In this document: positions 204 to 31,939 of the stretch, piece after piece
Layout: each line of letters opens with the position of its first letter
How positions within the stretch are numbered: the stretch's first letter is position 1
DNA from: Pseudidiomarina andamanensis
Lineage (GTDB): Bacteria > Pseudomonadota > Gammaproteobacteria > Enterobacterales > Alteromonadaceae
Assembly (NCBI RefSeq): GCF_009734345.1
Contig: NZ_CP032551.1
Location: 1,230,001 to 1,262,000 of the forward strand
Reading direction: 5' to 3'
Length of the DNA: 32,000 nt
Made by a program: the position numbers and the translations under genes
Notes under the pieces: model-generated
Database searches by the model: none
Seen by the model: only the letters and a program-made list of their open reading frames with translations
What the model was told of the DNA's origin: nothing

Positions 204-279
204 GCCCAGATAGCTCAGTCGGTAGAGCAGGGGATTGAAAATCCCCGTGTCGGTGGTTCGATTCCGCCTCTGGGCACCA
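204..279 (+). tRNA. pheV: tRNA-Phe (anticodon GAA)
   Basis: The 76-nt sequence GCCCAGATAGCTCAGTCGGTAGAGCAGGGGATTGAAAATCCCCGTGTCGGTGGTTCGATTCCGCCTCTGGGCACCA is near-identical to enterobacterial tRNA-Phe. It has a cloverleaf, a GAA anticodon loop and an encoded CCA. Confidence 0.97.
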
Positions 280-3128: not shown

Positions 3129-3205
3129 CGTCAACTCCTGCGTTATCGGTAATAGCAGGCGTGCCATAAGCACGCCTGCCATAAATTGCTATGCAACAAG
3201 TTTTC

Positions 3206-4792: not shown

Positions 4793-4855
4793 TGTGTTCT
4801 CCTGGAAAGGAACGAATGTAAGTAATTAAACGACGCAGGCAGATTAGTGAGATGG

Positions 4856-4889
4856 CATGACAAATTTGTGACAAATTCGTTTTGTCATG
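4856..4889. promoter_or_regulatory. candidate operator upstream of the lipoprotein/TonB-receptor operon
   Basis: A perfect 9-bp inverted repeat, CATGACAAA (4856-4864) / TTTGTCATG (4881-4889), enclosing a third TGACAAA copy (4868-4874). It lies 65-95 nt upstream of the ATG at 4792. Confidence 0.35.
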
Positions 4890-5028
4890 AAAGATTCATT
4901 GAACCGAAACAGAACTGTCACGGTAAAAATAAAGAAAGAAACACAATGTTTTGTTTAAGAATGTGGAGCACCAACACCGCGAGTGCTACATTGATAACGA
5001 GCAGTAAATAAAATGAGGTAATTATAAC

Positions 5029-6309
5029 GTGCGCTATTTCATTGCTATTGCGGTTGCCATATTGGCCCTGTTGCTGTGGTTTGCACCGGCCGATTCTCAA
5101 ATACGCCTCATTACGTTAAGCAAATCTGATCTTGGATGGACAGTCACGTACCAGCTAAACGAGCCGGTAACGCAATTAGAATTTGTACGCTCACCCAATG
5201 AATCACGCGCTGCTCGCTGGCAACCATTAACCGAGAATATCGAAATTGCTTGGCGTAACGGCTCTGAAGTTATCCGTAGTAAAAATGGCGAAGCGTTTTC
5301 AGAAGCTGCCTTCATTCTTGATGCAACCTACACCACCCTACCCAAAGATTATGCGCCGTTTTCACCCTTTAGTGACGGTGGCATGCTCATTCATACTGCA
5401 CGCTTTTTTGCATGCGCCGACCAGTGTGGTGCAGCCCATCATGAATGGCCGATGGCGGTCAGCTTGACCACAAATGACTATATGTTGGTTGATGGCCAAT
5501 TACGGCTTGGTTTCCATGAGTGGCTCGATAGAGACAGCGGCCGTGCCATTTATATTGGCTCACAACCTCCGGAAACCTTTTCCGCACTGGTTGCGATTAT
5601 CGATCCTGCACTGCCATCTTCATTGCGTCAGGATATGATCACCGAGTTACCGATGATCATGAGTTACTACACCAAACAACTGGGTGCGCTTTCGCAAACG
5701 CCAACCTTGTTCGCCTCATACAGTGATTTTCAGGGAGATTATTACGGGCACCAAGGCGGTGTTCTGCCGCATCAGGTATTTATGCATTGGTATGGCGAGC
5801 AAGCCCTGAAAAACGTTGATGAGCAGAATACGCTTTGGTTCTTTGCCCACGAGATTGCACATTTGTTTCAAGGTGCAGGGTTAAAATACTCAAGCTCAGA
5901 TGAAGCCTGGATTCATGAAGGCGCTGCTGAATTAATGTCGTACCTCTATACCGATACGAAGCTAGCGAAAAGCAATCAACTCGTCCAAGATGCCGTGCGC
6001 AAAGCACAAACCGAATGCGTTGCGTCATGGCCGGCAAGCGAACCTTTTATTAATGTCGGTCGCGTAAACTTTAGAGCACACTACAGCTGTGGCTTGGTCG
6101 CCAACGCTGATCTTCATGCGCAATTACAAGCCAATGGTGTTGGAGCTGGTATTTTTGCACTGTGGGAAACCTACTCAACCATGGTAAGCGACGGTGCGCC
6201 GGCTAACTCCGAGACTTATTTTGCCGCTTTCGAGCAGCTAACGGGTTACGCCTCAATGTCGCTTCGACAATTGATTGATCGGCCAGTATCTGCTTCTATA
6301 GCTCCCTAA
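5029..6309 (+). CDS. secreted or membrane-anchored gluzincin-type zinc metallopeptidase (HExxH-x18-E)
   Basis: GTG start with a hydrophobic N-terminus (MRYFIAIAVAILALLLWFAPADSQ). HEIAHLFQGAGLKYSSSDEAWIHEGAAE matches the M1/MA-clan spacing HExxH + 18 residues + E. Confidence 0.6.
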   Translation: MRYFIAIAVAILALLLWFAPADSQIRLITLSKSDLGWTVTYQLNEPVTQLEFVRSPNESRAARWQPLTENIEIAWRNGSEVIRSKNGEAFSEAAFILDATYTTLPKDYAPFSPFSDGGMLIHTARFFACADQCGAAHHEWPMAVSLTTNDYMLVDGQLRLGFHEWLDRDSGRAIYIGSQPPETFSALVAIIDPALPSSLRQDMITELPMIMSYYTKQLGALSQTPTLFASYSDFQGDYYGHQGGVLPHQVFMHWYGEQALKNVDEQNTLWFFAHEIAHLFQGAGLKYSSSDEAWIHEGAAELMSYLYTDTKLAKSNQLVQDAVRKAQTECVASWPASEPFINVGRVNFRAHYSCGLVANADLHAQLQANGVGAGIFALWETYSTMVSDGAPANSETYFAAFEQLTGYASMSLRQLIDRPVSASIAP

Positions 6310-6333
6310 ATTAAAATTACTCAGGAATTTCAT

Positions 6334-7125
6334 ATGAAACCGCAGCGAATTTTTATCACTGGCGGCGCCAGCGGCCTTGGTTTTGCGCTTGCCCAAATCT
6401 GTGCCAAAGGCGGTTGGCGTGTATGTATTGGTGACCGTGATATTGAGCGCGGTGAAGCGGTCATTGGCAGTCTGCAGAAGTTTCAACACCAAGCCATGTT
6501 CATGCCTTGCGACGTTACCCGTGTGAGCGATATCGAACAGGTTGCCAAGAAACTGGACGACGAATGGGGTGGTGTTGATGTGGTCGTCAACAATGCGGGT
6601 GTAGCGCAAGTGGGTCAGCTGGCTCAAACCACATTGAATGATTGGCAGTGGATCATCGATATCAATTTATTAGGCGTGGTGCGCGGTTGTAAGGTATTCA
6701 CGCCAATGTTCAAACGCCAAGGGCATGGTCATTTTGTCAACGTGGCATCAATGGCCGGGTTACTTGATGTGCCAAACATGAGCGCTTATAACGCGACCAA
6801 GGCGGCGGTGGTTAGCCTGTCTGAAACGCTGCAAAACGAACTGAAAAAAGACAATATTCATGTCACCGTAGTATGCCCAAGTTTCTTCAAAACCAATTTG
6901 GGTCAGGGCATGCGTACCTCGATTGATGGCATGGAACAAAAGCTCGACAAGCTCATGCGCTCAAGTAAATTAAACGCCGTTGATATTGCACGCATGATTA
7001 TGAAAGCCGTAGAGAAGAAGAAAACCCACGTACTGCCGCATCGCCAAGGCCGAATGGCGTGGTACATGAAGCGATTTTTGCCACGAAGTTGGTACCAAAA
7101 ATTGCTCTATTCACGTATGAAATAG
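6334..7125 (+). CDS. short-chain dehydrogenase/reductase (SDR) family oxidoreductase
   Basis: TGGASGLG cofactor motif, NNAG, and the catalytic S...YNATK (YxxxK). AGGAA lies upstream of the ATG. Confidence 0.85.
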   Translation: MKPQRIFITGGASGLGFALAQICAKGGWRVCIGDRDIERGEAVIGSLQKFQHQAMFMPCDVTRVSDIEQVAKKLDDEWGGVDVVVNNAGVAQVGQLAQTTLNDWQWIIDINLLGVVRGCKVFTPMFKRQGHGHFVNVASMAGLLDVPNMSAYNATKAAVVSLSETLQNELKKDNIHVTVVCPSFFKTNLGQGMRTSIDGMEQKLDKLMRSSKLNAVDIARMIMKAVEKKKTHVLPHRQGRMAWYMKRFLPRSWYQKLLYSRMK

Positions 7126-7146
7126 TCAACACATCGGTTTTTATAT

Positions 7147-7176
7147 AACGCCCTCAGCCTGAGGGCGTATTTGTTT
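7147..7176 (+). terminator. rho-independent terminator after the SDR gene
   Basis: ACGCCCTCA-GCC-TGAGGGCGT hairpin (7148-7168) followed by ATTTGTTT. Confidence 0.7.
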
Positions 7177-7348
7177 AAATTTCATTCAAAACACCTTAAG
7201 TCACGCCCTGCTTCGCTAAATAGAACCGTTTAACTTTATTCTATATTCACAAGGTGAATGCCTGTAATGCACTTCATTCATTTGTTGTATTCAATCAATT
7301 CAGTCTAGCCTAGAGTTCGTTAACACACGAACAACAACTGGGTAAATT

Positions 7349-8926
7349 ATGAACGGACTAAAACTCCCAAAACTTGAGCAACCTGTAGCAGGTTTAATTG
7401 ATCAAAATTGCCAACAATTTTTGCTCGACTTGGTACGAAACTTCCGCCCGAAGCTTCAGCGGCTATTAGCCAATCGTCAGCAACGGCAACAGCAAATAGA
7501 CAATGGTGCGTTACCGGATTTTGCTCCAGAAACAAAATCGATTCGTGCCGGCGAATGGCGCGTCGCAAGGCTTCCGAAGGATTTAACCAAACGTCGTTTG
7601 GAAATTACTGGCCCGGTTGACCGCAAGATGGTGATCAATGCGCTTAATGCGAATGTTGATTGCTACATGGCTGACTTTGAAGATTCTCAGTCGCCAACAT
7701 GGGAAGGCGTCATTCAAGGCCAGATCAATTTGTTCGATGCCAATACTGGAAAAATGACGTACACCGACCCTACATCGAATAAGCGTTATCAACTCAATGA
7801 AAACCCTGCCCTTTTGATTGCTCGTGTTCGCGGTCTGCACCTGCCTGAGAAGCACGTTGAAATTGATAACGAGGTGATTCCGGGTTGCTTATTTGATTTT
7901 GCGCTTTATTTCTATCTTAACTATCAGCAACGTGTCGCTCGTGGCACCGGCGTCTATTACTACCTACCGAAACTCGAGCACAGCAGCGAAGCACAATGGT
8001 GGGCTGACGTCTTTACCTTCACCGAAGACTACTTTCAGCAATCACGCGGCACCATTCGTGCAACGGTGTTAATAGAAACCCTACCCGCCGTGTTCCAAAT
8101 GGACGAGATTTTATACGCCATGCGTGAGCACATTGTGGCGCTAAACTGTGGCCGCTGGGATTACATTTTTAGCTACATCAAAACGTTGAAAAACCATCCT
8201 GATCGGGTGCTTCCTGACCGACAGGTCGTCACCATGAACCAGCCATTCTTAAATGCCTATTCTCGGTTGTTAGTGAAAACCTGTCATAAGCGCGGCGCGC
8301 TAGCGATGGGTGGTATGGCTGCGTTTATCCCGAGCAAAGATCCAGCCGAAAACGCCACCATTCTCGCCAAAGTTAAAGCGGACAAAGAACTCGAACGCAA
8401 CAATGGTCACGACGGTACCTGGATTGCGCATCCGGGGCTTGCCGACACCGTCCGCGAGGTATTCGTTGCTGGGCTTGATGGGGATAACCAATTACATGTA
8501 TTGCGCGAAAACGATGCGCCAATAGTCGCTGCCGATCTGCTCGAACCGAGCTCCGGCGAACGTACTGAAGCGGGCATGCGCACCAATATTCGTGTGGCAC
8601 TGCAGTACATTGCCGCTTGGATATCGGGGAAAGGCTGTGTGCCCATTTACGGTCTTATGGAAGACGCCGCCACCGCCGAAATTTCACGCACCTCCATTTG
8701 GCAGTGGATTAAACACGGTAAAACCCTCGATAACGGCGAGGTCGTGACCAAAGATTTATTCCGAAATTACCTGCAACAAGAGGCTAGCGTGGTTCGTAAC
8801 GAAGTAGGCGAGCAACGCTGGGAAGCCGAGAATTTTCCTAAAGCCATGCGGTTGCTAGAAGACATCACCACCGCTGATGACCTGGTCGAGTTTCTTACCC
8901 TGCCAGGCTACGAACTTATTCAATAA
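7349..8926 (+). CDS. aceB: malate synthase A
   Basis: 525 aa. Family landmarks include LEITGP, DFEDS, YYYLPKLE, LNCGRWDYIFS, MGGMAAFIP and DGTWIAHPGL. Confidence 0.95.
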   Translation: MNGLKLPKLEQPVAGLIDQNCQQFLLDLVRNFRPKLQRLLANRQQRQQQIDNGALPDFAPETKSIRAGEWRVARLPKDLTKRRLEITGPVDRKMVINALNANVDCYMADFEDSQSPTWEGVIQGQINLFDANTGKMTYTDPTSNKRYQLNENPALLIARVRGLHLPEKHVEIDNEVIPGCLFDFALYFYLNYQQRVARGTGVYYYLPKLEHSSEAQWWADVFTFTEDYFQQSRGTIRATVLIETLPAVFQMDEILYAMREHIVALNCGRWDYIFSYIKTLKNHPDRVLPDRQVVTMNQPFLNAYSRLLVKTCHKRGALAMGGMAAFIPSKDPAENATILAKVKADKELERNNGHDGTWIAHPGLADTVREVFVAGLDGDNQLHVLRENDAPIVAADLLEPSSGERTEAGMRTNIRVALQYIAAWISGKGCVPIYGLMEDAATAEISRTSIWQWIKHGKTLDNGEVVTKDLFRNYLQQEASVVRNEVGEQRWEAENFPKAMRLLEDITTADDLVEFLTLPGYELIQ

Positions 8927-8955
8927 TAATTCCATAACTTAACAGGACAACAACC

Positions 8956-10293
8956 ATGACAACCATTCCATTACACCAAGCAGAAGCTGCGAAACAGCTT
9001 GAACATGATTGGCAACAGAACCCACGCTGGACTGGCGTTGAACGTACTTATTCGGCGCTCGATGTGGTGCGTTTACGCGGCAGTGTGCAACCTGAATGTA
9101 CCTATGCTCAAAATGGCGCAGCAAAACTGTGGCGCTTAGTGAACGGGGCGGCGCAAGAGAAATTCGGCAAAGACTATGTGAATGCGCTCGGTGCGCTCAC
9201 GGGTGGTCAAGCGGTGCAACAGGTTAAAGCGGGTCTACAAGCAATTTACCTGTCGGGCTGGCAAGTCGCCGCTGATAATAATACCTCGTTGAGCATGTAT
9301 CCCGATCAGTCATTGTATCCGGTAGATTCAGTGCCAACGGTCGTCGAGCGTATCAACAACAGCTTTGCTCGCGCTGATCAAATTCAATGGTCAAAAGGTA
9401 TCGGCCCTGACCAAGACGGCTACGTGGATTATTTCGCGCCGATTGTCGCGGATGCTGAAGCGGGCTTTGGTGGCGTGCTGAATGCCTACGAGCTGATGCA
9501 AGCGATGATTCGCGCTGGCGCCGCTGGTGTGCATTTTGAAGATCAGCTAGCTTCGGTGAAAAAATGCGGTCATATGGGCGGCAAAGTGTTGGTGCCAACC
9601 CAAGAAGCAGTGCAAAAGCTAATTGCTGCACGTCTCGCTGCTGATGTTGCCGGTGTGCCGACGTTGATTCTCGCCCGCACCGATGCCAACGCCGCCGACT
9701 TGCTCACTTCTGATGTTGATCCGAACGACCTCCCGTTCTGCACGGGTGAACGCACCGCCGAAGGCTTTTACCGTGTGAACGCCGGTATCGATCAGGCAAT
9801 TTCCCGTGGTTTAGCGTATGCGCCATATGCCGATTTACTCTGGTGTGAAACCGCCAAGCCTGATTTAGACGAAGCGCGCAAGTTTGCCGAAGCCATTCAC
9901 GCACAGTATCCAGGTAAATTGCTCGCCTATAACTGCTCACCAAGCTTTAACTGGAAGCGCAATCTTGATGATGCCACCATCGCTAAGTTCCAACGTGAAC
10001 TGGCAGCTATGGGCTATAAGTTCCAGTTTATCACCTTAGCTGGCGTGCATAACATGTGGTACCACATGTTTGAATTAGCACATGACTATGCACGCAACGA
10101 TATGTCAGCGTATGTGAAGCTGCAGCAACAAGAATTCGCGGCAGCTGAAAAAGGCTACACTTTTGTAGCGCACCAACAAGAAGTTGGTACGGGGTATTTC
10201 GATGACGTCACTAATGTGATTCAAGGTGGGAAGTCTTCGGTAACTGCGCTAACCGGCTCGACTGAAGAAGAACAGTTCAAAAAACCGGCGTAA
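8956..10293 (+). CDS. aceA: isocitrate lyase
   Basis: 445 aa with the [13 protein letters not shown] signature. It starts 29 nt after aceB, with an AGGA Shine-Dalgarno sequence. Confidence 0.95.
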
Positions 10294-10344
10294 GCAAAGG
10301 TTTACGAATACCTACTTAGCATTACCTCGGAAAATACTGGGTAT

Positions 10345-10379
10345 AAGCCGCCAAGCACAGGTGTTTGGCGGCTTTTTTG
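10345..10379 (+). terminator. rho-independent terminator of the aceBA operon
   Basis: AAGCCGCCAA (10345-10354) / TTGGCGGCTT (10365-10374), followed by a T-run. Confidence 0.8.
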
Positions 10380-10469
10380 TGGTAGTATGCGCGCGCCTGA
10401 ATAGACAATTCATCTCAGAAATTGGGCTGTTCACCCCTGAAGCCTCGCATGTTGAAGGAATAACGACTC

Positions 10470-11909
10470 ATGTGGAAACTACTGCTGTTATTGTTGGGCG
10501 CTAGCCTGTTCTCACCAGCCGCATTTGCGGCCGCTGGTCAACTTGACCTCACCACCGCAAACGTTGGTATTGCCGCTATTATCATCTTTACCATTGCTTA
10601 TATTCTGGTGATGGGCGAAGAGCGATTGCACATGCGCAAGTCGAAGCCGGTGTTAGTCGCCGCTGGTTTAATCTGGATCATGATCGGTTTTGTGTACGTG
10701 CAAAACGATTTACCAGGTGTTGCCGAGGATGCATTTCGTCACAACTTGCTCGAATTTGCCGAGCTCATGCTGTTTTTGCTGGTGGCCATGACCTACATCA
10801 ACGCCATGGAAGAGCGTCGCTTGTTTGATGCTTTGCGTGCATGGTTAATCAAAAAAGGTTTTAACTACAAACAGCTATTCTGGATTTCAGGGTTTCTTGC
10901 GTTCTTTATATCGCCTATTGCCGACAACTTAACCACCGCACTTCTCATGTGTGCCGTCATTATGAAAGTTGCAGACGGCGACAAGAAGTTCATTAGTATT
11001 TCGTGTATCAGTATTGTCATTGCAGCAAACGCTGGTGGTGCCTTTAGTCCATTCGGCGACATTACCACTCTGATGGTGTGGCAGGCTGGTATGGTTGAGT
11101 TCCAAGAGTTCTTTGTCTTGTTCATCCCGTCGCTACTCAACTATTTAGTGCCTGCAGTCATCATGAGCTTCTTTATTGAAGACCGTAAGCCGTCATCGAT
11201 TTACGAAGAAGTTGAACTGAAGCGCGGCGCATTGCGAATCACCAGCTTATTCTTGCTAACGATTGCCACAGCGGTTGCTTGCCACATGTGGCTGCACTTA
11301 CCGCCTGTACTTGGCATGATGATGGGCTTGGGTTACCTACAATTCTTTGGTTACTTCTTACGAATGACCTTACCAGGCTCGCTTGCGCGCAAACGTGCTA
11401 TGGCTGAACGTGCTGGTGATATGGCACGTCTTGAACGCCTTGGTAGCGTGGTGCCATTTGATGTATTCAGCCGCGTACAACGCGCCGAGTGGGATACGTT
11501 GTTATTCTTCTACGGTATCGTCATTTGCGTTGGTGGTCTTGGCTTTATGGGTTACTTATCACTGCTTTCCAATACTTTGTATTTAGACATGAGCCCAACC
11601 TTTGCCAACGTGGCGTTAGGGGTAATGTCAGCGGTTATCGATAACATTCCAATTATGTTTGCGGTGCTGTCGATGCAACCAGAAATGTCGCACGGTCAGT
11701 GGCTATTGATCACGTTAACGGCCGGTACGGGCGGTAGCTTGTTGTCGATTGGTTCAGCAGCAGGTGTTGCACTCATGGGGCAAGCGCGTGGCTATTACAC
11801 CTTCGCTAGCCACCTAAAATGGACACCAGTGATTGCGCTTGGTTACATCGTCAGCATCTTAGCCCACATGTGGCTAAATGAGCACTTGTTTACGGTCTTC
11901 AACCACTAA
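10470..11909 (+). CDS. nhaD: Na+/H+ antiporter, NhaD type (ArsB/NhaD permease superfamily)
   Basis: 479 aa and polytopic. It has an N-terminal signal-like segment followed by EERLHMRKSKPVLVAAGLIW, as in Vibrio NhaD. Confidence 0.75.
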   Translation: MWKLLLLLLGASLFSPAAFAAAGQLDLTTANVGIAAIIIFTIAYILVMGEERLHMRKSKPVLVAAGLIWIMIGFVYVQNDLPGVAEDAFRHNLLEFAELMLFLLVAMTYINAMEERRLFDALRAWLIKKGFNYKQLFWISGFLAFFISPIADNLTTALLMCAVIMKVADGDKKFISISCISIVIAANAGGAFSPFGDITTLMVWQAGMVEFQEFFVLFIPSLLNYLVPAVIMSFFIEDRKPSSIYEEVELKRGALRITSLFLLTIATAVACHMWLHLPPVLGMMMGLGYLQFFGYFLRMTLPGSLARKRAMAERAGDMARLERLGSVVPFDVFSRVQRAEWDTLLFFYGIVICVGGLGFMGYLSLLSNTLYLDMSPTFANVALGVMSAVIDNIPIMFAVLSMQPEMSHGQWLLITLTAGTGGSLLSIGSAAGVALMGQARGYYTFASHLKWTPVIALGYIVSILAHMWLNEHLFTVFNH

Positions 11910-11934
11910 CGAATAACCAATAACGATTAACGTC

Positions 11935-13677
11935 TTACCCCGAAGTCGTGCGCACACAACGCATAAAGCGCACGGCGTCGGGGTACGGAAACACATCGGT
12001 AATCACGCCACGCGCAAGATTGTCTTGCTGTTGCCGCCAAAACTCAGCATCAATCAGTTCCGGATGGTATTTCAGTAAAATATCTCGTAGCTTCGGTTGC
12101 GGCACGGCATACGTCGCGAGTTGCTCGGGGAATACATCATTGGGCGCCACCGTATACCACGGCTCAGGCGCAATCATCTGCTCATACGTTTCTGGCTTTG
12201 GTAACTTGCGGAAGTTCATTTCGGTGAGGTACTGAACCTCATCATAGTCATAAAACACCACCCGTTTATGGCGCGTTAAGCCGAAGTTTTTCAGCAGCAT
12301 GTCACCTGGGAAAATATTCGCGGCCATCATATCTTTGATCGCTTGGCCGTAATCTTTCATCACCATGTCTATTTCAGCGTCGGTGCCGTATTCCAAGAAG
12401 ATATTCAACGGCATCATCCGGCGCTCAACAAACAGTTGGCAAATCACCAATTGTCCGTCTTCGATGGTTAAACTACCCGCCACGGTGCTGGTGAGTTCGT
12501 CGAGCAAGTCAGGCGAGATACGATCAAGCGGAATAGCCACGTTGGCAAATTCATAAGTATCTGCCATACGCCCGGCACGATCATGACGCTTAACCATGCG
12601 GTAGCGATCAATAACCGTTTGTCGGCTCATCTGTTTGCCGCCACCAAACTGGTCTTTAATCACTTTGAATACATACGGGTACGACGGCAACGTAAATACC
12701 GTCATCACCATCCCTTTAATACCTGCAGCGGCTACCAGTTGGTCATCGCTGGCTGCTAAGTGATGCAGAAAATCACGATAGAACTCGGTTTTACTTTGCT
12801 TATGTAATCCAATAGCTGAGTACAGTTCCGCAATTGTTTTCTTCGGCATCAGCCCTTTCAAGAAACGCACTAGCGCCGATGGCGCACGGGTATGCACCAT
12901 AAAGTACGAACGTGCGAAGGCAAAAATAATCGCCATTTGGTCGGTATCGGTAATCAGGGCATCCAAATAAAGTCGCCCAGAACTATTACGTAATACGGGC
13001 ACAATAAATGGAAAAATGCGATTAGCGCTAACAATGCGGCCCACCACGTACGCCGCCTTGTTACGAAAGAATGGTTCTTTCAAAACATCAATGCGCAGCT
13101 GATAGGTTGAGAGCTGACCAGCGGCTGTTTGTTCGCGAAATGCTTTTCGAAGTAAGCGAATATCTTCCGATAAATCATCATATTCTGCGCCAAAATCGAT
13201 ATCGCCCATAATGCGCGCTAACGTGCGGCGCATGCCCTGCACCACCGGAAAATAAGAGCGAAACTCGGTTTCAAGTGCGAGCGGAATGCTGTCGCTTAGC
13301 GTGGTTTCGACGAAAATGTAGGCGTTATTGAAATAGCGACGATGAAATAGATTACAAAATACCGAGTTGTAAAAGGTTTCGGCCAATTCAGCCTGCGGGT
13401 GAAACTGCAAAAACTGCTGATAAATTTTTCGGGTTTCTAGCCATAACGCTTCATTGAGTTCGCCGCCAGTTAGCTTATTCAGAATGGAGGTTGTTTCGCG
13501 CACCCGTTGATCATAAAAGCTAATCCGCACAGTTGCCGCATACTGGCCGGCATGCCAGTCACCTTCGCCGAACCGTTCTTTGGCTCGACGCGTGACTTCT
13601 TGAAACAGAGCATAGTGCTTATGAAAGCCCTGCAGTATCTTTCGAGCAAACATGCCCGCCCGCTTCGCATCGCCCAT
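11935..13677 (-). CDS. aceK: isocitrate dehydrogenase kinase/phosphatase
   Basis: Collinear with E. coli AceK (ILQGF..., FARSYFMV, GMVMTVFTLP..VFKVIKD, HDRAGRMADT, IFPGDMLLKNFG, VVFYDYDE, EPWY). The start was chosen at ATG 13677, 2 nt after the LysR stop, which gives an AceK-like N-terminal length. The in-frame start at 13722 cannot be excluded. Confidence 0.9.
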   Translation of the reverse strand: MGDAKRAGMFARKILQGFHKHYALFQEVTRRAKERFGEGDWHAGQYAATVRISFYDQRVRETTSILNKLTGGELNEALWLETRKIYQQFLQFHPQAELAETFYNSVFCNLFHRRYFNNAYIFVETTLSDSIPLALETEFRSYFPVVQGMRRTLARIMGDIDFGAEYDDLSEDIRLLRKAFREQTAAGQLSTYQLRIDVLKEPFFRNKAAYVVGRIVSANRIFPFIVPVLRNSSGRLYLDALITDTDQMAIIFAFARSYFMVHTRAPSALVRFLKGLMPKKTIAELYSAIGLHKQSKTEFYRDFLHHLAASDDQLVAAAGIKGMVMTVFTLPSYPYVFKVIKDQFGGGKQMSRQTVIDRYRMVKRHDRAGRMADTYEFANVAIPLDRISPDLLDELTSTVAGSLTIEDGQLVICQLFVERRMMPLNIFLEYGTDAEIDMVMKDYGQAIKDMMAANIFPGDMLLKNFGLTRHKRVVFYDYDEVQYLTEMNFRKLPKPETYEQMIAPEPWYTVAPNDVFPEQLATYAVPQPKLRDILLKYHPELIDAEFWRQQQDNLARGVITDVFPYPDAVRFMRCVRTTSG

Positions 13678-23875: not shown

Positions 23876-25825
23876 CTACTTGGTCGCTTGACGCTGCTTG
23901 AGAAAGAACACGCTAAACACAATCAGCACAAGCAATTGCGCACCAAGACTCTCCCACGTGGCTGCCATACCGAGCCAGTCGATATTTGACGGAACCGGGA
24001 ATGGGGTTGCGTTTATCCAGCCGGCCTCTTGGAATGCGATCATTGCTTTACCGGCTAACACGAACGCAAGTATCAGCAGCAAGTACGTGGTGTAAGCAAA
24101 AAACTTGGCAATTGGCAGTTTCACGCTAAAGCGTAAGATACCCCACGTGATCATTGCCAATACCACGGCGGCTGCGATAAATCCGCCCCAAACGCTGGTG
24201 TGCTGCGCGCTTTGCGCTTGAGTCAGCAATGACTGATAGAACAGCACGGTTTCAAACACTTCGCGGTACACGGCAATAAAGCTCAACAGCGCAATACCCC
24301 ACAGCGTACCTGCCGCTAAATGAGCATTCAGATTTTGCTTGATGTATTGCTGCCAAGCCTGTGCATTGGTTTTGCTGTGCATCCAAATACCGACATACAC
24401 CAATACCACTGCGGCAAGACCCGCAGCCACACCTTCCATAATCTCGCGACTCGCACCACTAATCGAAATCAGCGACTGCGCCGCCCACCACGTCAAACCG
24501 CCGAGCACAAGCGCAGCAAGCCAGCCCGAATGAACATATTTCACGGCATCGTTTCGTTCAGTGCGACGTAGCACGGTAATCAGCGCCAGCACCACCAACA
24601 GCGCTTCCAAACCTTCACGTAGCAAAATCACAAAACTTGCTGTGGCTAATGCCGTATTTGAAAGCTGTTGCTCATTCATGGTGTCTTGAGCACGTTCCAG
24701 AGCCGCTAAGATGTCACTAATCGCGGCGCTCACTTGTGCTTGCTGATCAGGCGTTGCGATAATGCGGCGCAAGTTCATCATTTGCGCTTCAATGGCTTTG
24801 GTTTGAGCTGCATCGTAGGCACTCAAACCATTCTCTATTAACTCAAAGCCATCTAAGTAAGCACTGACTGCGAGGTGGTTCGCACGCTTTAAGTCACCTG
24901 CTTTGTAGGCTTCTTCCGCCGCTTGTAAGCGCGCTTTTGCCACCGCGAATGGTGATATTTCAGCTTGAAAAAGTTGCTGTGGGTTCGCCCGTAAAATATT
25001 GACCAAATTCGCTTGAGAACTCGGTAGCTCAGCGCGTAATTGGGCTGGGCTCGTATTCACCATTTGCTGTAAATCAATCACATCCATGCTTGCCTGTCGC
25101 GCAACCTCAGTGCCATGTTGAAACGCGAGAGAGCCCACATAAAATGCCAGCGACCAACGCTGCTGCTCGGTCAGGTTGGTAAACGCCATCATGGCGGTGT
25201 CGTCAATGCCCTTCGTAATGGCATCGTATAGACCAAGCAACGAGCGATTTTCAGCGCGCTCTAAATCAGTAAAGTTAGTTGGGGCAGGTTCTAGGTTTTG
25301 CCCTGCTGGACCATCACCCTGACCTTGCTGACCATGACATGCACTACATTGCGCTTGATATATTTCTTTAGTTTGTGCGGTTGGCAACAATACTTCGGGG
25401 AGTTCGACTTTCGGTAATTGCTGCAAGATTTGTGCGCGCAATTGTGAGGTTGCACCGCGCACTTCAGCCAAATTCGCTTTACTCATGATTAATTCGCGTA
25501 GCTGTTGCGCCGGCTGGATTAACGTTTGTAGTGCTGGATTGTCAGTTGCTAGCGTGTTGATATTGCGCAGAATAATTGCCGAAAACTCTTCCATTTCGGC
25601 ATATTCGCCAGCGTTAACCACCTCACCGTTGGCGACCGCCTCGCTGTAATCCACCCCAATGTATTCCACCAACTGCGCAATTTGGCGCATGTATTCTTGT
25701 TGGAGTTCTGGTTGATTGGCTGTTTGATTCGCTAGGGACTGGGCTTGCGTCTGCGGGCTCAATACTGCCAACGTGGCAAAAACAACAACCGCCAACGCGG
25801 CACGAGTAATGGCTTGAAGCGTCAT
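23876..25825 (-). CDS. cytochrome c domain fused to an FTR1-family high-affinity iron permease
   Basis: Signal peptide, a CSACHG heme-c motif, then a polytopic C-terminal half with two RExxE motifs (REGLEAL, REVFETV). Confidence 0.85.
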   Translation of the reverse strand: MTLQAITRAALAVVVFATLAVLSPQTQAQSLANQTANQPELQQEYMRQIAQLVEYIGVDYSEAVANGEVVNAGEYAEMEEFSAIILRNINTLATDNPALQTLIQPAQQLRELIMSKANLAEVRGATSQLRAQILQQLPKVELPEVLLPTAQTKEIYQAQCSACHGQQGQGDGPAGQNLEPAPTNFTDLERAENRSLLGLYDAITKGIDDTAMMAFTNLTEQQRWSLAFYVGSLAFQHGTEVARQASMDVIDLQQMVNTSPAQLRAELPSSQANLVNILRANPQQLFQAEISPFAVAKARLQAAEEAYKAGDLKRANHLAVSAYLDGFELIENGLSAYDAAQTKAIEAQMMNLRRIIATPDQQAQVSAAISDILAALERAQDTMNEQQLSNTALATASFVILLREGLEALLVVLALITVLRRTERNDAVKYVHSGWLAALVLGGLTWWAAQSLISISGASREIMEGVAAGLAAVVLVYVGIWMHSKTNAQAWQQYIKQNLNAHLAAGTLWGIALLSFIAVYREVFETVLFYQSLLTQAQSAQHTSVWGGFIAAAVVLAMITWGILRFSVKLPIAKFFAYTTYLLLILAFVLAGKAMIAFQEAGWINATPFPVPSNIDWLGMAATWESLGAQLLVLIVFSVFFLKQRQATK

Positions 25826-25926: not shown

Positions 25927-25944
25927 GTGGGTATTTTTAGCCTA

Positions 25945-26013
25945 TTCCTACATGCGATTTAAAGACCACGCTGCCATCGTTTTGGGTAAATACCTTTAAA
26001 TATGATGTTAATA
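25945..26013 (-). repeat. candidate terminal attC site (69 nt) with a degenerate R' box
   Basis: Geometry is 7-5-8...8-5-7. The plus strand reads TTCCTAC ATGCG ATTTAAAG ... CTTTAAAT ATGAT GTTAATA. The L-box pairing is a perfect 8 bp, but R' reads GTA rather than GTT on the cassette strand. Confidence 0.3.
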
Positions 26014-26135
26014 AGTTCCTTCTTATTGAGGTGCCCTTTTCTGAACTTAATGCCAAAGAAAATGAAAGAAGATAACGCACAAAACGCGTATAGCAATAAG
26101 CAAAGAACTAAAAAACACAGCACTTCCTGAATTTT

Positions 26136-26618
26136 TTATTTGCTATAAACCGTTTTCGGCTTACCTAATCCCGCCCACAATTCAGTCAGAACCGATTGCC
26201 AAACTACTTTTTCTTCTGAACCGACCGAGAGCATTTCTGTTTCAAACTGGTCGAGGTCTATAAACGTCGAACAGCCGCCTGTTGCGTGGAGTCCATCTTT
26301 AGATACGTGCGAAAACACGATAAATCTATTACCAATAGTTGGGGCTGTTGTACCACAAGAATTCTTTTCAGTATCTGTTTTAATATATACGAAGTCAGTT
26401 ACGGCTTTATCTTTCCATACTTCTATGACTTGCATTTTTGTTTTGTAAAATGAAGTATCCCAATCTCCCGGAATTATCTCTGTATCGATAGCGATACCCG
26501 TGAAAATTGCGTCATGCTCCTGGATTACTTCTTCGAAAGTCTTTGCTTCACTGAAACAAGAGCATCCGAATGCAGTTATTGGGGAAAGCATCAGAGTAAA
26601 TAACATAACCCTTAACAT
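26136..26618 (-). CDS. secreted TIMP/NTR-like (OB-fold) protein, candidate metalloprotease inhibitor
   Basis: ATG 26618 has AAGGAG 9 nt upstream. After the signal peptide MLRVMLFTLMLSPITAFG the mature N-terminus is CSC. There are exactly four Cys, placed as in the TIMP N-domain (C1, C3, ..NSCG.., ..GGCS..). FVYIKT...SCG...FIVF...DGLHATGGCSTF parallels TIMP-1 FVYTP..SVCG..FLIAG..DGLLHITTCSF. Confidence 0.6.
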   Translation of the reverse strand: MLRVMLFTLMLSPITAFGCSCFSEAKTFEEVIQEHDAIFTGIAIDTEIIPGDWDTSFYKTKMQVIEVWKDKAVTDFVYIKTDTEKNSCGTTAPTIGNRFIVFSHVSKDGLHATGGCSTFIDLDQFETEMLSVGSEEKVVWQSVLTELWAGLGKPKTVYSK

Positions 26619-26742
26619 GAACCAGACTCCTTCAAACGATGATGTCCAGTTACTTATATCAGCGGTCATACTTCCACACCATCAAAAAATTGCGTAGCTT
26701 CTGCCTCAAAGGTATTCATGTATTTTTTGATTTAGGCTGCAA

Positions 26743-26810
26743 CGTTAACGTTAAACCGAGTGCTGATGCGACCTTCGCGATGGTTGAAGAGTATGGTTAG
26801 TTGGTTAAAG
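26743..26810 (-). repeat. candidate attC site (68 nt)
   Basis: The plus strand reads CGTTAAC GTTA AACC ... ATGCGA cct TCGC[G]AT ... GGTT AGTTG GTTAAAG. R boxes are 6/7 complementary, the L pairing is 4 bp, and an inner 6-bp stem has a bulged G on the expected arm. Confidence 0.35.
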
Positions 26811-26846
26811 ATGATTACGGAAATTGGTGCAGGATAAAAACTTAAT

Positions 26847-26974
26847 ATTTAACTTGGAAGACGCTTTGTCCGCTGTGTGCCAGGAGCGGACGTTGACGCT
26901 GAAATAAGCGGCGGCCCGACAAGGGCGTCCGGTGGAGGCCGCCGGCCGGAACGAACTTAATTGACTGGTTAACT
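26847..26974 (-). repeat. long irregular attC-like element with a GC-rich core; 3' boundary uncertain (26835-26853)
   Basis: The R'' box AGTTAAC (plus gttaact, 26968-26974) is 7/7 complementary to the 5' junction of the SRPBCC cassette and overlaps its stop codon. A GTTAAAT core site lies at 26847-26853. The interior holds several alternative GC-rich stems. Confidence 0.4.
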
Positions 26975-27427
26975 GGCGCTGCTACCATAATAAGACCTTA
27001 GCACCTGATGACGGTGCTTAAAGATGAACCGGTAAACAGGTGCCAGAACATATGCCAACACGGGCAACCTACACTGAAATTCGACGGTATCGGTGACCCG
27101 GCATGATGTCCCGTTTCTACTAATGTCCCGTCGATGGTGCCAGAGCCTATTGGTTAAAGAGCTCGACGCCTCCGCAAAACCACTTTGGCGATCAATGGAT
27201 TGAAAGAAGAACGTGTGCCGATCAATGGGAAAAATGCCGAAAAGGAGTATCCAGCTAGAGAAGAGCACGTTACCCGTAGGCCATTCAAAGATTGGCTTGC
27301 TTGACCATTCTGAGGGAACCGTCATGCGGATGAAAGGGTTCAACTCCGTATTCACGCCCTTCATGGTGAGCAATCCATCGATATCTTCCGGACTGATTTT
27401 AAGGTTACTCGATACTTCAAATTTCAC
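26969..27427 (-). CDS. SRPBCC (START/cyclase-dehydrase-like) ligand-binding family protein
   Basis: GTG start with GGAAGG 5 nt upstream. The C-terminal pattern ...RLWHHRRDI..NGTSCRVTDTVEF......VYRFIFKHRHQVL resembles the SRPBCC W-H-H ... D-V-Y/F ... F-x-R-R pattern. Confidence 0.5.
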   Translation of the reverse strand: MKFEVSSNLKISPEDIDGLLTMKGVNTELNPFIRMTVPSEWSSKPIFEWPTGNVLFSSWILLFGIFPIDRHTFFFQSIDRQSGFAEASSSLTNRLWHHRRDISRNGTSCRVTDTVEFQCRLPVLAYVLAPVYRFIFKHRHQVLRSYYGSSAS

Positions 27428-27443
27428 TGGTGCCTTCCGTGAC

Positions 27444-27513
27444 AGTTAACGTAGAAGTCACCGGCGCTGCGCAGCTTTATCGCGCAGCGTCCGAGTGGAC
27501 TGCCGGGTTAGAA
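27444..27513 (-). repeat. integron attC recombination site (70 nt), canonical architecture
   Basis: The plus strand (the predicted bottom strand) reads AGTTAAC GTAGA AGTCACCGGCGCTGCGC agctttatc GCGCAGCG[T]CCG[A]GT[G]GACT GCCGG GTTAGAA. It has 7-nt R boxes, 5+5 nt of unpaired spacer, and a 17-bp stem with single-base bulges T, A and G, all on the 3' arm. Confidence 0.7.
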
Positions 27514-27537
27514 GTGCTCGGAAAAACTCAACCGCCA

Positions 27538-27930
27538 CTATATTGAACACTTATTTCTTGCCTTCTTGTATTTGCCAAATTTCTCGACTCCTTTCTCAAG
27601 GGTTCGCTCCGCAGTGTATTCTCTGTCACCCATGAATTCGAGAAACCCTTTGATCGTCATTTCCATCGACTCACCCAGGTTTGCCTTGGCTTCTTCTAGG
27701 CATTTGCCTACGACAACCTCATCAAGATCACGTTTTATTGACTGTAAATTTGCAACTTGGGAACTTAGTGCAACTCGGGCAGTTGCTCCAGCAAGTTGGG
27801 TGCCATCAAGCCAACGCTGTTCAATCTTCTTGATTTCAGTCATCCCTTTATCTTTTGGCTCAATCAGTTTTTCGCATCCGACTAAGGCAATTGTAATAAA
27901 GGGAATCGCCAACGCTGTTTTGTATTTCAT
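27538..27930 (-). CDS. small lipoprotein of unknown function (130 aa)
   Basis: Lipobox IALVGC at residues 14-19. GGGAGA lies 5 nt upstream of the ATG. The mature part is predicted helical, and no family was recognised. Confidence 0.7.
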   Translation of the reverse strand: MKYKTALAIPFITIALVGCEKLIEPKDKGMTEIKKIEQRWLDGTQLAGATARVALSSQVANLQSIKRDLDEVVVGKCLEEAKANLGESMEMTIKGFLEFMGDREYTAERTLEKGVEKFGKYKKARNKCSI

Positions 27931-27964
27931 GAAATCTCCCTGTGGTGAAAATTAAGCACAGAAC

Positions 27965-28148
27965 TTCTAACATTTATATATTGTGCGTGCGCACTTCGGA
28001 ACTAGTTTAATTGATAGCTTTAGGTTCTTAAGTTACTGATTAAGCGGGCCTTACCACCTTTAAGAGCTCCGAGTTAGCAATGGCAATTTGAGCATACTCA
28101 GTTACACTCTACCGAGCGCACAATATCTGACCTTTATTTTTTGTTATG
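27965..28148 (-). repeat. 184-bp imperfect palindrome, either an oversized attC-like site or a MITE-like element
   Basis: ATATTGTGCG (27979-27988) pairs with CGCACAATAT (28117-28126), and interrupted complementarity continues inward for about 45 nt per arm. The flanks are TTCTAAC (27965-27971) and GTTATGT (28142-28148). Confidence 0.3.
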
Positions 28149-28347
28149 TCATTGACAGTATACGACTTAAATACACAACACAACAACAAAACGTGCAATA
28201 TCGCCGAAGTGAATGTGCCGTGTATGGCTAGCGACATCCACATTTACTAATAACGCGACGGCTAGTCACCAACTGGATTAGGCAGAAGGTCCGCTCCTCG
28301 CTCAAAGCGGAAGCAATCCCAAGAACTTGGTCATATTTGAATCTCTT

Positions 28348-28599
28348 TTAGCAGGCAGCGTTCCGCTGATTCTTCTGCTCTAAACTCAGCCGTTCTGCCA
28401 ACCAAACTTTAATGAGTGATTGCCGCGTCACGCCAATACGAGCAGCTTCTTGATCTAAAGACTCGACAATCCACAGTGGAAAATCGACATTAATTCGCTT
28501 AGATTCCTGATTTACTCGCCGTGCCGTTGAGAGATCGAGATCGTCAATAATATCTTCCTTATTGGCATCAAATTTTTCTTCAAATTTCTTGGTTTTCAT
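28348..28599 (-). CDS. brnA: BrnA-family antitoxin (ribbon-helix-helix/CopG-like)
   Basis: KRINVDFPLWIVESLDQEAARIGVTRQSLIKVWLAERL is typical of BrnA. ATG 28599 has AAGAGG upstream, and the gene overlaps the end of brnT by 20 nt. Confidence 0.8.
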   Translation of the reverse strand: MKTKKFEEKFDANKEDIIDDLDLSTARRVNQESKRINVDFPLWIVESLDQEAARIGVTRQSLIKVWLAERLSLEQKNQRNAAC

Positions 28600-28876
28600 A
28601 AAGCTCAACCTCTTTCTTTCGTGAGCGTCTCACCGAAATAATGCGGATTTTCTCGCCGCGAAACGTAATGATTGCTGACCAATGCTTTCTTCCAATCATG
28701 CCGATGACTATGTATCGCAATTCTTCAGTGTATTTTGTCTTTATTTCTAATAGGTTAGGGTCATCCCAAAGTTTCTGGCCACATTCGAAATCAATGCCAT
28801 GCTTTAATAAATTCGACAAACTTTTTTCGCGATCATAGTCGAAACTATGAGTATAATGTATTCCTTTTTTACTCAC
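28580..28876 (-). CDS. brnT: BrnT-family (DUF497) ribonuclease toxin
   Basis: FDYDREKSLSNLLKHGIDFECGQKLWDDPN...YIVIG......IRIISVRRSRKKEVELYE matches the BrnT pattern. GTG start with AAGGAG 9 nt upstream. Confidence 0.8.
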   Translation of the reverse strand: MSKKGIHYTHSFDYDREKSLSNLLKHGIDFECGQKLWDDPNLLEIKTKYTEELRYIVIGMIGRKHWSAIITFRGEKIRIISVRRSRKKEVELYENQEI

Positions 28877-28921
28877 TTCGCAAATCTCCTTATTTGCTGA
28901 CGTGAGAACATTAGCATTGGT

Positions 28922-28941
28922 TTTGAGTGCATTAGCTCAAA
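28922..28941. promoter_or_regulatory. inverted repeat upstream of brnT, candidate BrnA operator
   Basis: TTTGAG-N8-CTCAAA lies 46-65 nt upstream of the brnT start. RHH antitoxins typically autoregulate through such repeats. Confidence 0.3.
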
Positions 28942-29003
28942 GCTATAATTGCTCCCAGCTCTCTAAGATTTCTCTGTTTCAAAAATACGACTTTTCAACG
29001 CTC

Positions 29004-29033
29004 ATAAAAAAGGCGAGCTAAAAAGCTCGCCTT
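29004..29033 (-). terminator. rho-independent terminator of gcvP
   Basis: The minus strand reads AGGCGAGCT-TTTT-AGCTCGCCT followed by TTTTTT. It lies 21 nt downstream of the gcvP stop at 29054. Confidence 0.8.
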
Positions 29034-29053
29034 CTTCATCACATCAAAACCAA

Positions 29054-31939
29054 TTAACGATAAGTATCAACCGCCGGGCAACTACACATCAAATTCCGGT
29101 CGCCATACACGTCGTCAATGCGGTTCACGCTTGGCCAGAACTTGTTCGCCTTAACGGCAGCTACAGGGTATGCAGCAAGTTCGCGGCTATATGGGCGTTC
29201 CCAGTTCGCATCAACAATGTCTGCCAACGTGTGTGGTGCGTTGTGCAGTGGGTTGTTGTCTTCTGGCCACTCGCCGGCTTCAACGCGTTTCGCTTCTTCA
29301 CGAATGTTGATCATGGCTTCAATGAAGCGGTCTAGCTCAGCTTTCGATTCAGACTCGGTTGGCTCAACCATTAATGTGCCCGCTACTGGGAAGCTCATGG
29401 TTGGGCTGTGGAAGCCGTAGTCTTGCAAGCGTTTTGCCACGTCCATCTCGGTCACGCCACAAGCGTCTTTTAATGGGCGCAAGTCGATAATACATTCGTG
29501 CGCAACGCGGTCGTTACGGCCTTTGTACAGAATTGGGTAGTGCTTGCTTAAGTGCTTCGCAATGTAGTTGGCGTTCATAATAGCCACTTCCGTTGCTTCG
29601 CGCAGGCCACGTGAACCCATCATCACAATGTACATCCACGAAATTGGCAAAATGCTCGCGCTACCAAATGGTGCTGCAGATACCGCGCCGTTTTCAGCAT
29701 CGGTGTCCGCAATTTTCACCACACTGTGGTTCGGTAAGAATGGTGCTAAGTGCTTCTTCACGCCAATTGGGCCCATACCAGGACCACCACCGCCGTGCGG
29801 AATACAGAAGGTTTTGTGCAAGTTTAAGTGCGATACGTCGGCACCAATGTAACCTGGTGAGGTGACGCCCACTTGCGCGTTCATATTGGCACCATCAAGG
29901 TAAACCTGACCACCGTGCGCGTGCACAATGTCACAGATGTCTTTAATGCCTTCTTCGTAAACGCCGTGCGTTGACGGGTAAGTCACCATAATGCATGACA
30001 AGTTGTCGCCTGCTTCTTCAGCTTTCGCTTTCAAGTCAGCCAAATCAACGTTACCGTTCTTGTCACAGTCAACCACTACCACGTTCATGCTCATCATTTG
30101 CGCTGAAGCTGGGTTGGTACCGTGTGCTGAGCTTGGAATTAAGCAGATGTTGCGATGCGCATCGCCACGGCTTTGGTGATATTTCTGAATGGCTAACAAG
30201 CCAGCGTATTCGCCTTGTGCACCTGAGTTTGGTTGCATCGACATCACGTCGTAGCCAGTGATATCCACTAACCACTCAGACAACGTGCTGAGCAATTCAG
30301 CGTACCCTTGCGCTTGGTCTGCTGGGCAGAACGGATGCAACTGACCGAATTCCGGCCAAGTGACTGGAATCATTTCAGCGGTGGCGTTGAGCTTCATGGT
30401 ACATGAGCCCAACGAGATCATGCTGTGGTTCAATGACAAGTCTTTGTTTTCAAGCTGCTTGATGTAACGCAGCATTTCGGTTTCAGAGTGGTAGCTGTTG
30501 AATACTGGGTGTTCCAAAATCGCGCTTTCACGGCGAAGTGCTGCCGGAATTGATTCAATTTCACCAGAAGCCACACGTGAATCTAACACGTCAATTTCTA
30601 AACCGTGATCAGCACCGAATAACGCTGCGAACAAGGCGTCAACGTCTTGGCGGGTTTTCGCTTCATCTAAGCTCACGCCGAACTGGCCGTTGCCGTCAAC
30701 GCGCAAGTTAATTTCAGCTTTGTCTGCGCGCGCTAATACGTCAGATGCGTCGCCTTCAAGTTTGAAGGTTAAGGTATCGAACCAATGGTTGTTCAATACT
30801 TTCACGCCCTTCTCTTTTAAGCCAAGCGCGACGATGTCGGTCAAACGGTTAATGCGTGATGCGATGGTTTTCAGGCCTTGTGGGCCGTGGTAGACCGCGT
30901 AGAACGATGCCATGTTGGCAAGCAATACCTGCGCAGTACAGATGTTTGAGTTCGCTTTCTCACGACGGATGTGCTGTTCACGAGTCTGCATAGCCATACG
31001 CAATGCTTGGTTGTCACGGCTGTCTTTTGACACACCGATGATACGACCTGGCAGTGAACGCTTGTATTTGTCACGGGTTGCAAAGAATGCAGCATGCGGG
31101 CCGCCGTAACCCATTGGTACGCCGAAACGTTGTGCTGAACCCAGCACCATGTCAGCGCCCATTTCGCCTGGCGATTTCAACAACACAAGGCTCATGATAT
31201 CTGCGGCAACGGCAACAATACCTTTGTTCGCTTGAATATCAGCAATCAGCTTTTCAATGTTGTGTATTTCACCGTTGCGGTCTGGATATTGCAACAACGC
31301 ACCGAATACGTCGTGGTTATCGGCTTCGCGCGCTGGTCCAACAATTACGTCAAAACCAAACTGCTCGGCGCGCGTTTTCACCACATCAATCGTTTGTGGG
31401 AACACGTTGTCAGCAACGTAGTACGTGTTTGATTTGCTCTTGCTCACACGCTTCGACATGGCCATGGCTTCGGCTGCTGCCGTTGCTTCGTCAAGTAATG
31501 ACGCGCTCGCCAGTTCAAGGCCAGTCAAATCCATGGTCATTTGTTGGAAGTTCAAAATGGCTTCTAAACGACCCTGAGCAATTTCTGGCTGGTACGGCGT
31601 GTACGCGGTGTACCAACCTGGGTTCTCAAGTACGTTACGCAAAATAACGTTCGGTACTAGGGTGTCGTAGTAACCCATACCGATAAATGACTTGTACACT
31701 TTGTTCTTGCTCGCGATACCTTTGAGTTTGGCAAGCGCTTCACGCTCGTTCATTGGTTCGCCAACAGACAAAAATGGGTCGCGACGAATCGCGCCAGGAA
31801 CGGTGTCACGCGTTAGCACTTCGAGTGAGCTAACACCCAACTCAGCCAACATCGCCTTGGTTTCATCAGCACTTGGGCCAATGTGGCGGGCAATGAATTC
31901 ACCGTGATTTTCTAACTGCTTCAGCGTAGTAGTCGTCAT
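29054..31939 (-). CDS. gcvP: glycine dehydrogenase (decarboxylating), glycine cleavage system P protein
   Basis: A 961-aa single-chain P protein. It has the PLP-lysine region [18 protein letters not shown] and an N-terminal [14 protein letters not shown]. Confidence 0.95.

Follow-up and report, generated by a model that had tools for sequence, protein, structure and literature searches.

A probable integrase-less integron cassette array between gcvP and the FTR1 gene of Pseudidiomarina andamanensis

In Pseudidiomarina andamanensis an accessory block lies between the terminator of gcvP and a cytochrome c/FTR1 permease gene, at approximately positions 25953-28998 of the 32-kb stretch of DNA analysed here (hereafter the window). 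[quoted passage not shown] Two attC sites, recognised by a covariance model (a surrogate for the attc_4 model of IntegronFinder), lie on one strand, separated by less than 4 kb, no integron integrase gene is present in the 32 kb, and one of the cassettes, carrying a DUF8410 gene, is found in an intI-linked integron. These results bear out the central proposal of the original prediction, which had been made from the DNA sequence of the window and envisaged an integron-type cassette array without an integrase in view. The block is not a complete integron: it has no intI, and the head of the array abuts the gcvP terminator. IntegronFinder would probably flag it.

attC sites and cassettes of the block

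Since an Rfam scan of the window matched a tRNA only and no attC family, we built our own attC covariance model, R1, from 19 attC sites of Pseudidiomarina integrons picked by the purpose-written scanner described below; none of these came from the window, and the attC of the DUF8410 cassette was excluded. A mixed alignment of class 1 and Pseudidiomarina sites was considered as the basis of the model and dropped, its L-box register being off by one base. Covariation in the R1 alignment is strong: the hand-drawn structure of R and L boxes has 86% of cells paired, compared to 32-41% when it is slid, with 58 compensatory cells. Run over both strands of the window with filters off, the model returned exactly two sites, both on the minus strand, at 26891-26974 (25.1 bits, E ~9e-4) and 27444-27513 (23.7 bits, E ~2e-3), the next-best match, of 8.8 bits, lying outside the block. 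Unrelated loci totalling 579 kb, used as a negative control, gave no match at E<=1. As a positive control, R1 found all eight class 1 attC sites not used in training, with scores of 23.7-38.1 bits; the two window sites score like true attC sites of another integron class. Checking the block with an attC covariance model had been suggested in the original prediction, and with this surrogate the check yields two sites.

The two sites lie on the same strand, 470 nt apart. That at 27444-27513, the attC of cassette 1, displays the full attC architecture (R''-L''...L'-R', with conserved AAC/GTT, unpaired spacers and extrahelical bases), reading R'' TTCTAAC, spacer, L'' AGTCCAC, a 9-bp GC stem, L' GTGACT, spacer and R' GTTAACT. 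When the six sites originally proposed were folded as single-stranded DNA and compared with shuffles, this one alone stood out (-17.3 kcal/mol, z = -3.06): its TAAC/GTTA R box is paired, its spacers are unpaired, and its long stem carries three bulged bases, situated on the '' arm (the 3' arm of the bottom strand) as in canonical attC sites. Four of the others (26743-26810, 28248-28366, 27965-28037/28106 and 25940-26013) fold no better than shuffles (z between -0.6 and +0.5), the z values of all proposed sites other than 27444-27513 ranging from -0.9 to +0.5. In the scanner, every AAC...GTT pair of 50-150 nt was folded under the constraint that its R boxes pair. Known class 1 attC sites were recovered by it, with energies of -0.29 to -0.32 kcal/mol per nt; it ranks 27444-27513 second among 2622 window pairs and first among unbranched hairpins, with 26743-26810 and 28248-28366 at ranks 1887 and 595, respectively.

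At 26891-26974, the attC of cassette 2, the R and L boxes likewise fit an attC (R'' AGTTAAC, overlapping the stop codon of the DUF8410 open reading frame, or ORF; L'' AATTAAG; a GC-rich centre; L' CTTATT; R' GTCAACG, a variant of GTTAACG), the centre of the site being asymmetric. None of the remaining units, namely BrnTA, the orf44 region, the ORF-less unit and the gene for a 160-amino-acid (160-aa) protein, gave an R1 match at E<=10 with filters off. The imperfect palindrome that was said to follow each ORF is a feature of two sites only, and fold z and R1 alike reject as attC the ORF-less unit and the sites that come after BrnA, orf44 and the final ORF. An array first put at four or five units is correspondingly reduced to two demonstrable cassettes. 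The 7-nt repeats that had been taken to bracket the cassettes do exist at the positions given for them, but they pair no more often than chance would have it: exact GTTNNNN/reverse-complement pairs 300-900 nt apart number two in the block, compared to a mean of 1.9 in shuffled sequence and 3.0 in other 3-kb tiles of the window. The brackets alone are therefore without statistical weight.

Cassette 1 (27450-27970, minus strand; 521 nt, TTAGAA...G) comprises a lipoprotein ORF (27538-27930, minus) and its own attC. Cassette 2 (26897-27449, minus; 553 nt, TTAACT...CAGCG) similarly combines its own attC with a DUF8410/SRPBCC-like ORF (26969-27427, minus), whose counterpart in the related locus L001 is marked PF28469 DUF8410. 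The first six bases of each cassette, TTAGAA and TTAACT, complement that cassette's own R'' (TTCTAAC and AGTTAAC, respectively), as would be expected had each cassette at one time been an excised circle.

Homologues of the DUF8410 protein at least 90% identical to it occur in other Pseudidiomarina species. The P. atlantica copy belongs to a long series of short ORFs in one orientation, beginning beside a glmS-adjacent recombinase, and the same gene is present in P. woesei, P. aestuarii and metagenomic arrays, with different neighbours each time. With 411.9 bits on TIGR02249 (cut-off 265), the P. atlantica recombinase is identified as an integron integrase, oriented divergently from an array of more than 20 short co-oriented ORFs that include RelB/ParE, CcdAB and VapBC pairs. 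In the available sequence of this chromosomal integron (L048), intI occupies 503-1477 on the minus strand and the array 1780-12459. Besides the P. atlantica integron, six other arrays hold the DUF8410 cassette. In all eight contexts aligned, identity extends through ...CCAGTTAACCAGTCAATTAAG...CTTATTTCAGCG and stops exactly after ...CAGCG|T. A stop of identity at G|T is the signature of a cassette boundary and so identifies the true R' in the window as GTCAACG at 26897-26891. The unit had rightly been predicted to be a cassette, under the name SRPBCC, but its attC had been drawn too long (26847-26974), with GTTAAAT (26853-26847) as R'; fold z and R1 both rejected this long version. Presence in several arrays, identity ending at G|T and a start that complements its own R'' together mark the DUF8410 unit as a gene cassette.

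The expectation that the window would hold no integrase was also correct. The lowest E from a tblastn search of its 32 kb with the IntI of P. atlantica was 1.3, and neither intI nor a remnant of it was found.

Cassette variation at the gcvP-FTR1 site

Among near-identical strains, whole cassettes are present or absent. A metagenomic contig (L064) shares with the window the non-coding tail that follows brnA, which is identical in the two, and cassette 1 with its attC; over these there are three mismatches in some 680 aligned bases. After the attC of cassette 1, L064 reads ...CTACG|TCAACGTCCGCTCC, i.e. G|TCAACGTCCGC..., which is the sequence found past cassette 2 in the window. The two sequences therefore differ by the presence or absence of cassette 2, an exact difference of 553 nt at the G|T crossover. 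A second locus, L062, the flanks of which are 97.8-99.1% identical to those of the window, has brnTA and the non-coding tail in common with it as far as the last base ahead of TTAGAA and is unrelated thereafter, confirming the left junction of cassette 1. Homology returns at the hairpin CGTCCGCT... and runs through the 160-aa unit; in between, six other genes, including those for ThsB-TIR, a caspase-like protease and an AAA_13 protein, replace the two cassettes. In L001, the flanking genes compared are identical to those of the window and the gene order is the same. We argue from such base-exact cassette differences between near-identical strains that an integrase would have acted recently in this population, and the exactness of the presence/absence polymorphism lends indirect support to the idea that the attC array is recombinogenic.

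In L064 (1005-8536) the lipoprotein cassette is followed by large genes encoding 189, 752, 974, 406 and 163 aa. The 974-aa product carries a Phage_integrase domain, and the insertion of a further mobile element at the array may account for these large genes.

The comparison loci were obtained mostly through exact-protein look-ups, an FTR1 search of genome contigs having given two Pseudidiomarina loci. The content of the gcvP-FTR1 interval differs in each relative examined, varying both within and between species, an outcome of the junction alignment that the original prediction had named as support. The P. tainanensis interval (L002) has NERD, an IS110 transposase and an AAA_30 helicase, that of P. 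maritima (L004) NERD, DarT-NADAR, AbiJ and a short recombinase, L059 SIR2+DUF87, TIR/SEFIR and AIPR, and L058 mostly genes without family assignment. R1 finds between one and seven attC sites per locus, all on the gene strand and each directly 3' of an ORF: seven in L059 (26.6-58.1 bits), four in L058 (23.3-50.2 bits), three in L004 (36.3-57.9 bits), two in L006 (32.9-39.8 bits), one in L002 (60 bits) and two weak ones in L062 (18.4 and 14.8 bits). The anti-phage-type cassette genes at the relatives' sites comprise SIR2+DUF87, TIR/SEFIR, AIPR, DarT-NADAR, AbiJ, ThsB-TIR with the caspase-like protease, and AAA_13. Genes of this type bounded by attC lie at 599-9264 of L059, 2016-9210 of L004 and 2827-8922 of L062. 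Phage-defence integron cassettes have already been described (bioRxiv 10.1101/2024.07.02.601719). A 165/169-aa cassette is located at different array positions in L004 and L062.

The short recombinase of the P. maritima array (7979-8590, minus strand) is a 203-aa tyrosine recombinase consisting of the catalytic domain only and encoded on the opposite strand. It was considered as an IntI remnant and rejected: it matches only Xer/invertase families and has no TIGR02249 match at E<=0.01. An equivalence between the 169-aa gene of L062 and the 169-aa gene beside FTR1 in L002 was similarly discarded, the two being unrelated. On the other side of FTR1, P. tainanensis has a MazE/PIN toxin-antitoxin pair (L002 12019-12707) between FTR1 and a histone-deacetylase-family gene; the pair is absent from the window.

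A leader of the form GT(T/C)AAC GTCCGCT NN TGGCAC (N3-5) AGC..., often with a 7-bp hairpin, recurs at these loci. As GT(T/C)AACGTCCGCTNNTGGCAC (equivalently GT(T/C)AACGTCCGC) it lies 3' of attC sites in the window (26869-26897, minus) and in six independent related loci, at L002 9258-9290, L004 6988-7020, L051 6531-6560, L056 3776-3800 (minus), L058 4463-4495 and L064 677-710. The window copy, TCAACGTCCGCTCCTGGCACACAGCGGAC (26869-26896, minus), stands directly past the crossover point of cassette 2. More generally, the motif is positioned directly past the crossover of numerous distinct attC sites, and the genes downstream of it are unrelated; it could serve as a leader common to several cassettes or as a favoured partner in recombination. 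The brnA tail contains a related hairpin in inverted orientation (window 28286-28311).

Borders and remaining genes of the block

The limits of the block are almost exactly those first suggested: in alignments, homology to related genomes ends at about 28998, just past the gcvP terminator, and returns at about 25953. The reported AT-richness holds but is modest (GC 0.429, compared to 0.489 in the rest of the window), and the five short ORFs do all lie on the minus strand. The upstream flank is gcvP (29054-31939, minus), which has its own terminator. The left border, established from a six-locus alignment, consists of the gcvP 3' end and this intrinsic terminator (28999-29053, minus), the inverted repeat of which forms a hairpin at 29004-29039. 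Accessory DNA begins directly after ...TTTTTTATG, and all six loci aligned have this border in common.

The first gene of the block, brnT (28580-28876, minus), encodes a type II toxin (Pfam PF04365, 82.8 bits, E 2e-23) named as a BrnT family toxin of P. andamanensis. It is overlapped by the gene for a BrnA-like ribbon-helix-helix antitoxin (28348-28608, minus), whose Pfam matches, to CopG_antitoxin and RHH_5, are weak and below cut-off, so that its assignment leans also on its location and its overlap with brnT. The conserved non-coding tail after brnA, of about 377 nt (27971-28347, minus), ends G(27971)|TTAGAA, and the variable cassettes begin at its 3' end; with a fold z of ~0 and no covariance-model match, it is not an attC.

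The last unit of the block (25954-26868, minus), comprising a leader, the 160-aa gene and a 3' tail, recurs in L062 as a single uninterrupted unit, and in part in L058, beside FTR1. It contains no recognisable attC and has no covariance-model match. Its gene (26136-26618, or to 26669 if read as 177 aa from an upstream ATG; minus) specifies a secreted or lipoprotein-like protein without a match in Pfam or NCBIfam. The earlier description of this protein as TIMP-like was not confirmed, the best PDB sequence match having an E of 0.08. At the right border (25937-25953, minus), alignment reveals the terminal 17 nt (ATGTAGGAATAGGCTAA) of a gene for 169 aa that is retained there in related species, the border in the window falling 17 nt before its stop codon; core sequence then continues to the cytochrome c/FTR1 permease gene (23876-25825, minus), the downstream flank. 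An imperfect palindrome at 25950-26008, with 15-nt arms and a 29-nt loop, ends exactly where the homology to the 169-aa gene starts, and is not attC-like by fold or model.

Elsewhere in the window, a tRNA gene (204-276, plus strand; Rfam RF00005, 69.7 bits) is followed by a strong terminator-like hairpin. The chromosome as a whole measures 2.41 Mb.

Origin of the array, competing explanations and known systems

We envisage that the array would have been seeded by an integron integrase inserting cassettes at a non-canonical genomic site, and that attC x attC insertion and excision would later have enlarged and altered it. The integrase would act in trans, the IntI of sister species being encoded beside glmS, far from their gcvP-FTR1 arrays. 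The upstream BrnTA module probably stabilises the array and may help to transcribe it, and this module and the terminal 160-aa gene would be flanking modules without recognisable attC. Known origins of CALINs include both loss of intI and insertion at secondary sites by an integrase encoded elsewhere (PMC4889954); integrases insert cassettes at many genomic attG sites, and small CALINs have been proposed to arise in this way (bioRxiv 10.1101/2022.09.11.507474). The attG-insertion route is favoured here over loss of intI in place because of the lack of any intI remnant and the sharp start of the array behind the terminator. IntI is annotated in P. atlantica, P. maritima, P. donghaiensis and P. 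mangrovi, and also in Idiomarina and Aliidiomarina; in P. maritima, IntI and the gcvP-FTR1 array are on different contigs.

Several observations weigh against an integrase-less cassette array. No IntI labelled P. andamanensis is found among the named IntI-cluster members listed, and the array may be inactive in this genome; a search with a C-terminal GlmS fragment for the glmS/intI locus of P. andamanensis gave short fragments only. The R' of the second attC departs from GTT, both window sites have scores near the bottom of the range for true sites, and R1 was built for this work, so that its E-values are rough. No attC is detectable in BrnTA or the 160-aa unit, which together make up about two thirds of the block, and most of the block is thus not demonstrably cassette DNA. 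Finally, the brnA tail is ~88-90% identical between the window (27971-28347) and L062 (2406-2815), as against 98-99% for the flanks, a difference that points to homologous recombination as an additional source of some exchange and suggests for the BrnTA module a history separate from that of the flanking core genes.

A more ambitious interpretation, which we regard as rather doubtful, is that gcvP-FTR1 would be a second platform, integrase-less but active, conserved across Pseudidiomarina. An IntI from elsewhere, or a transient one, would go on adding and removing cassettes at one fixed point of entry, either the end of the brnA tail or the GT(T/C)AACGTCCGCTNNTGGCAC leader, acting as an attI-like or preferred attG-like site. 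If true, the locus would be a satellite integron stockpiling anti-phage systems.

It is quite unlikely that the site is a general genomic-island or defence hotspot in which homologous recombination in the core genes on either side exchanges the content, with attC sites as passengers and no integrase acting. The large defence genes and IS110 transposase of the relatives' islands would suit such a hotspot, as would the divergence of the brnA tail relative to the flanks and the want of a known IntI in P. andamanensis. However, near-identical strains differ exactly at the attC G|T crossover, by gain or loss of whole cassettes, and recombination in the flanks does not predict such junctions; nor does it sit well with cassettes that occupy different positions in different arrays. 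Very unlikely, too, is the notion that the block is the fossil of a complete integron once resident at gcvP-FTR1, with intI and attI deleted in place. Loss of intI is a recognised origin of CALINs (PMC4889954), and the orientation of the cassettes would place the lost gene on the gcvP side, but it is immediately behind the gcvP terminator that accessory DNA starts in all six aligned loci. Moreover, no remnant of IntI is detected by tblastn in the window or across eight related gcvP-FTR1 loci (nor anything at E below 1 when the P. atlantica IntI was searched against thirteen related loci), and the integron of the genus is elsewhere, beside glmS. That the palindromes are ordinary terminators or chance inverted repeats in a plain, laterally acquired island unrelated to integrons is almost certainly wrong and can be counted as already refuted: the chance frequency of the 7-mer brackets and the poor folding of four of the six proposed sites speak for it, but two sites were found by an independent attC model with clean negative controls, and one cassette is common to an intI-linked array.

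Taken as an integrase-less cassette array, the block is no new kind of element, such arrays being already known. Its value lies in documenting a CALIN whose cassettes can be traced to the complete integron of a sister species and whose gain and loss events between near-identical strains are resolved to the base pair. In a marine genus with small genomes, a single chromosomal site repeatedly hosts integrase-less arrays, some of them with anti-phage genes, which bears on how CALINs arise and on whether they are active in trans.

Like the CALINs defined in 2016 (PMC4889954), the array carries more than one attC site on a single strand within 4 kb with no intI or intI pseudogene nearby, is small, as most CALINs are, and has cassettes of unknown function and no resistance genes; as there, sister genomes contain both a complete integron and a CALIN. 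Unlike them, it lies at one chromosomal site, gcvP-FTR1, across several Pseudidiomarina species with differing content, and some two thirds of the block, the BrnTA and 160-aa units, lacks recognisable attC. Insertion at non-canonical genomic attG sites (SALIN; Loot et al., bioRxiv 10.1101/2022.09.11.507474) similarly leaves cassettes outside an integron platform, beside housekeeping genes and just past a gene end. This makes it a plausible seeding route, although the present case is a multi-cassette array recurring across species rather than a single isolated cassette. With class 1 mobile integron arrays (aadA2, aadB, aacA4, arr-3 and blaVIM-2) the array has in common its attC architecture, fold and '' arm bulges, together with R1 scores in the range of 23.7-38.1 bits, but those arrays have intI1, attI1, Pc and resistance genes and reside on plasmids or transposons. 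The sedentary chromosomal integron of P. atlantica differs in possessing IntI and more than 20 short ORFs, where the window locus has two cassettes only and neither integrase nor attI. The two nevertheless share an attC family with TAAC AAG ... GC GTTA motifs and a CACTCGGACGC core, an interspersion of toxin-antitoxin cassettes and, above all, the same DUF8410 cassette.

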